Below, one piece after another: positions 53,495-54,836 of a stretch of 64,000 nt of DNA (the first letter of the stretch is position 1; each line of letters begins with the position of its first letter). Below the pieces are notes generated by a model. The model was not told the DNA's origin, did no database searches, and saw only the letters and a program-made list of their open reading frames with translations. The DNA comes from Clostridiales bacterium (GTDB lineage: Bacteria; Bacillota; Clostridia; Oscillospirales; Oscillospiraceae). Where the stretch lies: NCBI GenBank assembly GCA_022772525.1, contig JALFAD010000046.1, forward strand, positions 56 through 64,055. The letters run 5' to 3'. Position numbers and translations under genes: made by a program.

Positions 53495-53917
53495 TTATTT
53501 TTGTTTCATCAGGCGCTGAATCAGGGCCTTGTCCACCTGGTGGTACACTTTGCCGTCCCAGCGAAGGTTGGGGCCTTTTCCGCACAGGCGCATACAGCCC
53601 GTTCGCTTCACCGTCACGTCCTTGGGCGCAATTTTTTCGGCGTAATCCGCCAGAAACGCGGCTTTGCCGCAGTTCGGCCCGGCGCACAGCTCCATGCAGT
53701 GTCCCCCGGACAGCCGCGCTCTGGGAATCCGCCGGATCAGCGCCAGCACCAGCGGCTCCCGAATCCCATAAAATTCCGCAATTTTTGCCGGGGCCTCCGC
53801 CGGAATGCAGCCGTTTTCCTTCTGAATCTCCTTCAGCAGGGCAATCAGGGCGTTCTGATCTCCCGGCGCGCCCTGACGGCGATAGTATTCCAGCGCTTCC
53901 TTCAAATTCCATTCCAT
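53495..53917 (-). CDS. NuoE/HndA-like thioredoxin-fold 2Fe-2S protein, stand-alone
   Basis: LIALLKEIQ..G.IP, then CAGPNC and GCMRLCGKGPN. GGAGG RBS. Confidence 0.75.
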   Translation of the reverse strand: MEWNLKEALEYYRRQGAPGDQNALIALLKEIQKENGCIPAEAPAKIAEFYGIREPLVLALIRRIPRARLSGGHCMELCAGPNCGKAAFLADYAEKIAPKDVTVKRTGCMRLCGKGPNLRWDGKVYHQVDKALIQRLMKQK

Positions 53918-54082
53918 ATTGTTTCCTCCATTGGCAGAACACGCCCCGGCAGGATCTGCCGGGGCGCTCAACAGATTTATTATAGCACGGTATTTCACGT
54001 CAGTCAATGATAATTCCCCTTCAGAGCTGATTTTCTCCCATTTGCATGGATAATACAACACTTTTTTAGGAAGGTTTCCATC

Positions 54083-54111
54083 TTGTATTTTAAAAACAAC
54101 GGTGTTATTAT
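54083..54111 (+). promoter_or_regulatory. SigA-type extended -10 promoter
   Basis: TTGTAT-N17-TATTAT preceded by TGn. Confidence 0.6.
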
Positions 54112-54117
54112 ATAGCT

Positions 54118-54385
54118 ACAAAGAGGTGATACCAATGATCTAGTTCACCCCAGATTCCCATGAAAAACGGAATCGAAAGACGGATCTCACCTTTTCTTCC
54201 GATAACATAAATTTCTAGGAAACCATACTATAGGAATTGAGACGGAAGCAATTCAAAAAATGAACCACCGAGATCGCGTCTTAATCTGCAGAAAGCGAGG
54301 TTACCCAATGATTGACCCCTACTGTTCCATGAAATAACCCTCGGCAGCTATCGAGAATCGAAGCTGACCGAGGGTTATTTCTTTT
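54118..54385 (+). ncRNA. Putative ~270-nt structured RNA or mini-ORF transcript of unknown class
   Basis: Bounded by a promoter and the terminator GAAATAACCCTCGG..CCGAGGGTTATTTC-TTTT. Contains two related hairpins with CCAATGAT loops and no conventional ORF. Confidence 0.55.
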
Positions 54386-54460
54386 GCGGCGGGCGGCAAG
54401 GCCGCCAGCTAATGCGTGCGCAAGCCAATTGTAATCGGAAAACCATTGGGCGTTCATTAT

Positions 54461-54515
54461 GGTATGATTGCCACTGGCAATCATTGGTATTTCAGATTCG
54501 CTGCGCGGAGCACCA
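54461..54515 (+). repeat. Small repeat family C
   Basis: GGTATGATTGCCACTGGCAATCA..GATTCGCTGCGCG..GCACC. A related copy lies at ~8282-8331(-). Confidence 0.7.
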
Positions 54516-54581
54516 CGCTCGGTTTCGTTCCCTTGCAAAAGCAGGGAACGTTCTTTTTTTGTCAAGTGATAAATTTTCCCC

Positions 54582-54634: not shown

Positions 54635-54836
54635 ATGTTAACCGTAAAACAGCTGGCGCGAAAATGCGGTGTGAGTGTGCGCACGCTCCACCACTATGAC
54701 GCCATCGGGCTGCTCAGGCCCGCCAAGACCACCGAAGCCGGCTACCGGCTGTATGACGGAAAACATCGACGCCGCAGGGGGCGACGGAACCGGGGCCTTT
54801 GCCCGGGAGGCCATTGCATTTTATTGCAGCAAATAA
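54635..54836 (+). pseudogene. MerR/TipA(Mta)-like regulator, internally deleted
   Basis: [21 protein letters not shown]...AGYRLYD is joined out of frame to a TipAS-like C-terminus, [25 protein letters not shown]. Confidence 0.8.

Follow-up and report, generated by a model that had tools for sequence, protein, structure and literature searches.

What is the short unit at 54083–54386 of the window (the whole stretch of 64,000 nt from a Clostridiales bacterium that was analysed), a regulatory RNA or a very small gene? A sequence-only reading had taken it for a stand-alone transcript of about 270 nt that contains the same module twice, each time a hairpin carrying a Shine-Dalgarno (SD) site and an AUG, and had proposed a sponge, a decoy or a translation-coupled regulatory RNA. 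All the features it had listed, namely the promoter, the stems, the octamers, the mini-ORFs, five GGA motifs and the terminator, lie where it had placed them (Table 1).

Table 1. Features of the unit; positions are those of the window
Feature	Position	Strand	Details
Promoter, sigma-A-type	54083–54111	+	−35 TTGTAT (54083–54088), 17-nt spacer, extended −10 TG-T-TATTAT (TG and TATTAT 54103–54111)
Primary transcript, predicted	54118–54386	+	About 269 nt, deduced from promoter and terminator
Shine-Dalgarno site 1 (SD1)	54120–54132	+	−16.1 kcal/mol duplex with the 3′ end of 16S rRNA from a same-genus genome
Module-1 stem	54125–54129 / 54145–54149	+	GGTGA / TCACC, read from sequence
Octamer repeat CCAATGAT	54132–54139 and 54305–54312	+	Read from sequence
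Sharp left end of RNA contigs	54133	+	Adapter joined directly at 54133 in X4, X5 and X14; X7 contig starts there
Segment between both CCAATGAT repeats	54133–54305	+	173 nt; closed circle in the assembly of one RNA run
ORF1, start–stop minigene	54135–54143	+	M-I-stop (MI*); 2–3 codons in the family, e.g. MYR, MI, MY, MYT, MYK
Spacer hairpin	54153–54174	+	GATTCC/GGAATC with A-rich loop; two-sided changes in 3 of 6 pairs, 87.5% of cells paired (20 close homologues)
Folded spacer domain	54178–54282	+	Helix CTTCCG/CGGAAG and competing or pseudoknot helix GAATTG/CAATTC
Shine-Dalgarno site 2 (SD2)	54290–54303	+	AGAAAGCGAGGT; duplex of −15.6 kcal/mol
Module-2 stem	54299–54303 / 54313–54317	+	GGTTA / TGACC, read from sequence
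ORF2, nonapeptide	54308–54337	+	MIDPYCSMK (MIDPYCSMK*); stop codon within the 5′ arm of the terminator
Intrinsic terminator	54331–54386	+	Long hairpin and U tract; perfect 14-bp arm pair 54331–54344 / 54368–54381

The + strand promoter of the unit was read by eye and is not in the promoter-scan listing; an equal promoter spacing is found upstream of homologues, and transcription would start near 54118. None of 200 shuffled sequences folds as well as the 274-nt unit (z −6.5), a difference to which the terminator contributes much. The octamer CCAATGAT by itself is not rare, with three matches in the window against 2.7 expected, so the repeat alone is weak evidence. What goes beyond chance is the conservation across genomes and the discrete transcript in RNA-type runs.

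The unit sits between a divergent NuoE-like gene (53495–53923) and a short repeat followed by a truncated MerR-type gene. The repeat is a palindromic intergenic element right behind the terminator (54389–54530) with five matches in the genome at ≤14% mismatch; its high depth in sequencing run X19 comes from other loci. The MerR-type gene (54635–54835), which has the HTH part only (Pfam MerR) and a promoter-like site with a long spacer ahead of it, looks internally deleted. On the minus strand, a divergent sigma-70-like promoter (TTGGTA-17-TATAAT, 54135–54107) overlaps the −10 box of the unit and module 1. A similar arrangement can be read in several homologues, and it may be a by-product of the symmetric −10 box.

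Of 61 related genomes, 29 matched a 341-nt query, which in most cases aligned as two blocks whose distance varied. A covariance model of the 3′ block, built from 60 sequences, matched 34 of 40 same-genus genomes with one to five matches each, weak ones and ones on the opposite strand of a terminator included; two same-genus genomes that are ≥99% complete gave no match to this model. Across the order, 19 of 151 genomes had a match to the model, spread over 10 of 26 families; the class gave 13 of 151 (11 of these outside the order) and the phylum 2 of 151, both Clostridia, counts that are lower bounds wherever more than 40 genomes were searched, as 26 candidates per genome were scored. The exact 3′ pattern matched 4 of 301 genomes of the taxonomic family. 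In species genomes, a pattern scan returned at least 123 loci under the names Faecousia, Oscillospiraceae, Acutalibacteraceae, Limivicinus and other gut Clostridia, and two records with other names are probably mis-binned contigs. Close homologues were found in records named Faecousia, and the host genus is probably Faecousia (Oscillospiraceae).

The members share a layout of promoter, SD1, an AUG with one or two further codons and a stop, spacer, SD2, an ORF of 9–10 codons and a long terminator that holds the stop codon in its 5′ arm, with a spacer of ~36 to 616 nt between the blocks. A second, minimal copy lies in the same genome (G000 C58:20259-20390; L037:1455-1600) and consists of MY-stop, ~20 nt, SD2, MEPTFEKE and the terminator, with ~47 nt between the two start codons. 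It has near-identical counterparts at the same site in L014, L023, L027 and L046. In the long-spacer members L019, L022, L024, L053, L087 and L113, a small hairpin (TCCCGCT..GGGA) lies shortly before SD2, often after CACATAAGAG. Three members have tRNA genes nearby (L070:1980-2394, L051:2307-2380, L021:2408-2491) and one a Gut-1 RNA.

The earlier statement that the unit belongs to no recognised RNA family agrees with our searches. Rfam 15 at the gathering score returned three tRNAs only in the whole window, the region of the unit gave only sub-threshold hairpin matches at E≤10, and the matches at 20 homologous loci, three tRNAs and a Gut-1 RNA, lay beyond the limits of the unit. In the literature covered, which excluded subscription journals, no description of the family was found, and the peptide and motif strings occurred in no paper. 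The motif has no match in the supplement tables consulted of Fremin and Bhatt 2021 (PMC8040213) or in the main text of the STRUCT preprint (10.1101/2024.10.03.616574). The family to which the unit belongs is real, conserved and expressed, a set of micro-genes in gut Clostridia that apparently has not been described before.

The conserved core of this family is the second mini-ORF, with the peptide consensus MLD[ITN]K[SN][ES]QK (MLDIKSEQK) over 9–10 codons. An independent metagenome set was chosen on SD2 and a start codon only, the stop codon not being used, and comprised 122 loci (114 distinct, 5 truncated, 109 scored). In this set ORF2 stops after 7–9 codons in 109 of 109 cases, 101 of them at nine, by way of TGA (50), TAA (46) and TAG (13), while the other two frames are open in 1 and 31 of the 109; a terminator arm follows 98 of the 101 nine-codon ORFs. 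The first set of 156 blocks ends in TAA (78), TGA (68) or TAG (10) and never in TGG, though the pattern permitted it, and has an in-frame ATG in 152, three being frameshifted and one without ATG; the members are kin, so these counts overstate independence. ATG is replaced by GTG in 4 of 166.

Constraint at the amino-acid level is also visible. Among 130 distinct strings, Leu2 is coded by all six Leu codons and position 3 is only Asp or Glu. On a spanning tree of 125 distinct strings, ORF2 has a dN/dS ratio of 0.45, with 17 synonymous versus 6 replacement changes at Leu2; the same tree gives 2.05 for frame +1 and 0.73 for frame +2, the latter likewise below 1, and the pairwise ratio for ORF2 is 0.50. 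The last ORF2 codons overlap the terminator stem and are independently constrained. MLDIKSEQK is identical in four genomes of other orders with unrelated spacers. Synonymous positions are strongly conserved too, with TTA in 88 of 99 Leu2 codons versus 1.9% of the Leu codons in this genome, and therefore the RNA sequence matters as well. Around its start, ORF2 folds less than its synonymous recodings do (mean rank 0.66). Subfamily peptides differ (MLDIKSEQK, MIEPKNSEK, MEPTFEKE), and that of the window copy departs from the consensus at 5 of 9 positions. The idea of mini-ORFs within a structured RNA holds as far as a link to translation is concerned, but because ORF2 is a conserved core with a coding signature, micro-gene is a more fitting name for the unit than non-coding RNA.

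In L112, L115 (two copies), L054 and L200, ORF2 is frameshifted, without ATG or has lost its stop (the last in L200, a model hit); these are either decayed copies or assembly errors. The seryl-tRNA synthetase of this genome (G000 C71:29153-30484; L162) starts with MLDIK behind an SD2-like SD. A decoy or relic of the serS start was rejected, as, of 30 serS genes from the genus, 1 has an SD of that form and only five residues are shared, a likeness that is probably coincidence. Mimicry of a host protein stretch was rejected likewise, with a profile of 104 peptides giving no match above typical family scores in 2,942 ORFs, and so was a single protein read through three in-frame TAGs, since the frame runs into a TGA after 42 codons and the spacers of homologues vary in both their length and their sequence.

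The first mini-ORF is a start–stop frame throughout the family. Its stop falls within four codons in 92 of 95 members, where the two alternative frames reach 33 and 1; in the independent set it does so in 63 of 67. ORF1 was found in 126 members with 600 nt of upstream sequence and was not detected in 21 (L049, L076 and L115 were inspected). Because ORF1 can be missing and the spacer can shrink to ~36 nt, ORF2 and the terminator form the invariant part. Both SDs pair at about −16 kcal/mol with a 16S 3′ end from the same genus, where genes of this genome picked for an SD core have a median of −11.6 and a 5th percentile of −16.3. SD2 is near-invariant in 60 aligned members, a set itself selected with the SD2 motif. 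Many ORF1s of the family contain AGA/AGG codons; the rare-codon pair is absent from the window copy. In L156, at least five SD-CC(G/A)-start-short ORF-stop modules stand in tandem within 300 nt upstream of the 3′ block, and L100 and L070 have two such modules each. No extra inner module occurs in 92 of 95 members, and the three pattern matches include doubtful ones.

The two matching hairpins fared less well than the two SD-AUG sites they were thought to present. Pairing probability exceeds 0.5 for the module-1 hairpin in 28 and for the module-2 hairpin in 12 of 95 full-length members, and across 20 close homologues, in which covariation was to be expected of them, neither has a two-sided change at ~70% pairing. 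The modules within one locus are no more alike than those of different loci (4.92 versus 4.87 nt). Module 1 is somewhat more folded than its shuffles (mean rank 0.36), which suggests that its hairpin is only a tendency in the family. The pair of matching hairpins is a feature of the window copy and is not conserved. In the same 20 homologues, two-sided changes occur in the spacer helices and in the terminator (6 of 14 pairs, 99.6% of cells paired), with a covariation score reached by 0 of 500 shuffles, a control that ignores relatedness for a structure drawn from those same sequences. The spacer fold has z < −2 in 58 of 93 members, and the domain at 54178–54282 varies in both length and sequence across the family.

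Five GGA motifs between the modules had pointed to a protein sponge, and a CsrA/RsmA-type sponge would also fit the variable length and the paralogues that are typical of such RNAs. The spacers of 95 members hold 359 GGAs, compared to 310 ± 8 in dinucleotide shuffles. However, all five GGAs of the window copy lie in predicted stems with conserved UCC/UUCC, four of them paired at P ≥ 0.99 and the fifth half paired, and 28 of the 95 members have two or fewer. CsrA (PF02599) was not found in 5 of 5 carrier genomes, three of them ≥97% complete, by a search whose control was positive in 3 of 14 reference genomes. For CsrA, the sponge is largely refuted, and it is the least credible of the readings considered here.

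Parts of the stretch occur in 22 runs, of which eight were examined, all as contigs. In the RNA-type runs, contigs span 54132/54133 to ~54330–54350, with depths of 10^3–10^4 confined to the unit, contig depth being a poor measure of expression. In X7, X15, X4, X5 and X14, coverage from the locus is limited to the unit and begins at 54132–54133, the promoter excluded. X2 and X3 have low or strain-derived flank cover with a peak over the unit (12,049 in X2), and the DNA-like run X19 is flat at 43x. X4 and X5 had been flagged as probably DNA; the confinement of their coverage to the unit argues that these contigs derive from RNA. The proposal of a stand-alone transcript of ~270 nt is supported. 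The contig end at 54133, seen in four studies, precedes AUG1 by 2 nt and follows the predicted start by 15 nt. Its simplest and likely reading is a processed 5′ end, the alternative being loss of 5′ bases in library making.

One run adds a further form. X15, the sole BGISEQ run among the RNA-type runs, contains a single 203-nt contig made of a 173-nt cycle and 30 overlapping letters without mismatches, at a mean depth of 13,822 and with the locus flank absent. Its joint leads from 54304 to 54132, with eight ambiguous letters. The joint is not listed in the six other RNA-type runs or in the DNA-like run, so that one of seven RNA-type runs has it, and the X3 and X5 contigs pass linearly through the second CCAATGAT repeat. 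A 5′ end that carries an 8-nt repeat classically invites template switching by reverse transcriptase, and assemblers clip short flanks. Switching from the 54133 end to the second repeat, together with clipped flanks, would yield the same X15 contig, and the circle is possibly a reverse-transcription artefact. CC stands ahead of the ORF2 start in 60 of 166 members, and the repeat is not maintained in the family. Ligation by RtcB was rejected, as an RtcB gene was not found in 6 of 6 same-genus genomes.

The surroundings of the unit are not conserved. Downstream neighbours belong to many unrelated families (Pfam scan of 96 of 104 called downstream ORFs; upstream ORFs entered the clustering), and 29 of 69 Pfam-confirmed ones are convergent, often starting directly behind the terminator. 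Clustering of all ORFs at 142 loci revealed no recurring partner, with the largest neighbour cluster at 11 of 142 loci. Because the neighbours are varied, often convergent and in no group of more than 11 loci, the unit is not a leader and is without a linked partner. Several other origins and roles were rejected. As for a phage element, the 2 and 7 matches of the pattern to viral contigs include a single true locus, and this lies at the end of its contig. An excised DNA form would leave a joined motif, which has 0 matches in metagenome contigs versus at least 122 for the genomic motif, these being DNA assemblies that are uninformative on RNA circles. A stand-in for missing tmRNA or the hibernation factor HPF is at odds with the presence of both in carriers (HPF in 3 of 3 carriers; tmRNA over the cut-off in 2 of 3 carriers, and not over it in the carrier G000 or the non-carrier G183). 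YacP/Rae1, a family of ribosome-associated nucleases, has no discriminating value, being present in 5 of 5 genomes whether or not they carry the unit.

The unit is conserved across Clostridia, carries a coding signature in both frames, is independent of its neighbours and gives a discrete transcript. We favour, with a probability of about one half, an abundant micro-mRNA for a conserved polar nonapeptide, in which the start–stop uORF and the folded spacer likely set processing and stability. In this free-standing, multi-copy unit, the core would be the strong ribosome-binding site, the frame of 9–10 codons and the terminator. Ribosomes would load on the 5′ start–stop frame and, together with the folded spacer, set the processing and lifetime of the RNA, with the end 2 nt before AUG1 presumably removing SD1 from the processed form. 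Ribosomes would load separately on the open SD2 and release the peptide, which is hydrophilic, nine residues long and predicted to have an intracellular partner that is itself conserved. A peptide of nine residues with no signal or neighbouring receptor is expected to be degraded fast.

The main rival keeps the ribosomes and discards the peptide. Loading on near-maximal SD-AUG-short-ORF modules would itself be the function of a decoy or parking RNA and the free peptide a by-product, whether 30S/70S ribosomes, initiator tRNA or release factors are titrated or the nascent peptide holds the ribosome at the ORF2 stop. We regard this as possible, yet less probable than a micro-mRNA. It accords with two SDs among the strongest of the genome, with the tandem modules of L156, L100 and L070, with one to five matches per genome and great unit-confined contig depth, and with synonymous conservation and a length that is kept better than the residues. 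However, a plain decoy needs no amino-acid-level constraint on ORF2, nearly all members do without an extra inner module, and the carriers already own HPF and, for the most part, tmRNA. A bolder version, which we hold only tentatively, is a ribosome-parking RNA of gut Clostridia in which such modules and the nonapeptide frame hold ribosomes and the RNA, cut at C^CAAUG, sometimes becomes a 173-nt circle with its own SD and a reusable start–stop frame.

The circle could instead be the stable working form of a precursor that is cut at C^CAAUG in both modules and closed, so that SD2 precedes ORF1. The X15 cycle, the coincidence of its joint with the sharp contig end of four other studies and the circular bacterial sRNA DucS (PMC10504365) speak for it. 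The confinement to the one BGISEQ run, the linear contigs of X3 and X5, a repeat suited to template switching that the family does not maintain and the RtcB searches make it unlikely. An RNA toxin or toxin mRNA, either a CreT-like mini-ORF toxin or a type I toxin-antitoxin message with a processed structured leader, is more improbable still. The window copy has parts like those of CreT, i.e. a strong SD, an AUG in a hairpin loop and a mini-ORF (PMC10097628 and PMC8501985), and AGA/AGG codons, a scattered multi-copy distribution and 5′ processing would fit. Yet no Cas gene or CRISPR family was found among the 96 downstream neighbours scanned, the window copy has no rare-codon pair, its RNA is abundant rather than silenced, and ORF2 is a hydrophilic frame of nine residues with little room for an antitoxin gene behind the terminator.

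Under the micro-mRNA reading as under its main rival, the unit belongs to a gene family without annotation that is spread across many families of uncultured gut Clostridia. Its members are below the size that gene callers detect, and Rfam lacks them, yet their RNA is apparently among the very abundant RNAs of the host. If the peptide is the product, this is one of the smallest conserved stand-alone genes, and the polar orphan that it encodes differs from the ultrasmall signalling peptides known so far; should its role be the loading of ribosomes, it would be an RNA-based way to store or titrate them. Natural variants (no ORF1, five ORF1 modules, spacers of 36 to 600 nt, non-carriers) and the 120-nt minimal copy in the same genome make both readings directly testable.

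Among known systems, the vmlR, cplR and lmo0919 leaders, short-uORF attenuators of Bacillota resistance genes, share with the family a uORF of 2–3 codons that has a strong SD and opens a structured leader. However, those attenuators control read-through into a co-oriented gene, whereas the genes downstream of the family are unrelated and often convergent (29 of the 69 Pfam-confirmed ones). CsrB, RsmY and RsmZ are likewise multi-copy, variable-length, stand-alone RNAs with GGA triplets, but here conservation centres on an ORF, the GGAs are paired within stems and the five carriers searched gave no CsrA match. Type I toxin-antitoxin systems are marked by a small hydrophobic membrane toxin, in contrast to a polar peptide of nine residues.

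The leaderless communication peptides (LCP/SIP) of Firmicutes come closest in scale, with an ultrasmall ORF of 8–10 codons behind an RBS, the whole of it mature peptide and no signal sequence (PMC10518010). As described there, LCPs are strongly hydrophobic peptides whose genes adjoin that of a RopB/RRNPP receptor, whereas the family peptide is charged and polar, has no conserved neighbour or adjacent RopB/RRNPP gene (142 loci; Pfam on 96 downstream neighbours) and, unlike LCP genes, sits behind a start–stop ORF and a long folded spacer. CreT shares a strong SD, an AUG and a few codons next to a hairpin, one that is only partly conserved here, and demonstrates that the function of a conserved mini-ORF can lie in the RNA and not in a peptide (PMC8501985 and PMC10097628). 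It is tied to cas loci and repressed by CreA, in contrast to a unit with two ORFs and abundant RNA for which no cas neighbour or creA linkage was found (96 downstream neighbours scanned, 142 loci clustered). DucS of Bacillus altitudinis, which is both circular and linear, is likewise a stand-alone Bacillota sRNA of similar size (PMC10504365); its permuted reads would have a counterpart here if the X15 cycle is real. In DucS the terminator end is joined to the start site or to 26–35 nt downstream of it, as proven with RNase R (PMC10504365), whereas the X15 joint falls within an internal 8-nt repeat and is known from one assembled contig. The family thus resembles LCPs in size only, CreT in its parts but not in its context, DucS only if the circle is real, and the uORF attenuators at its 5′ end.
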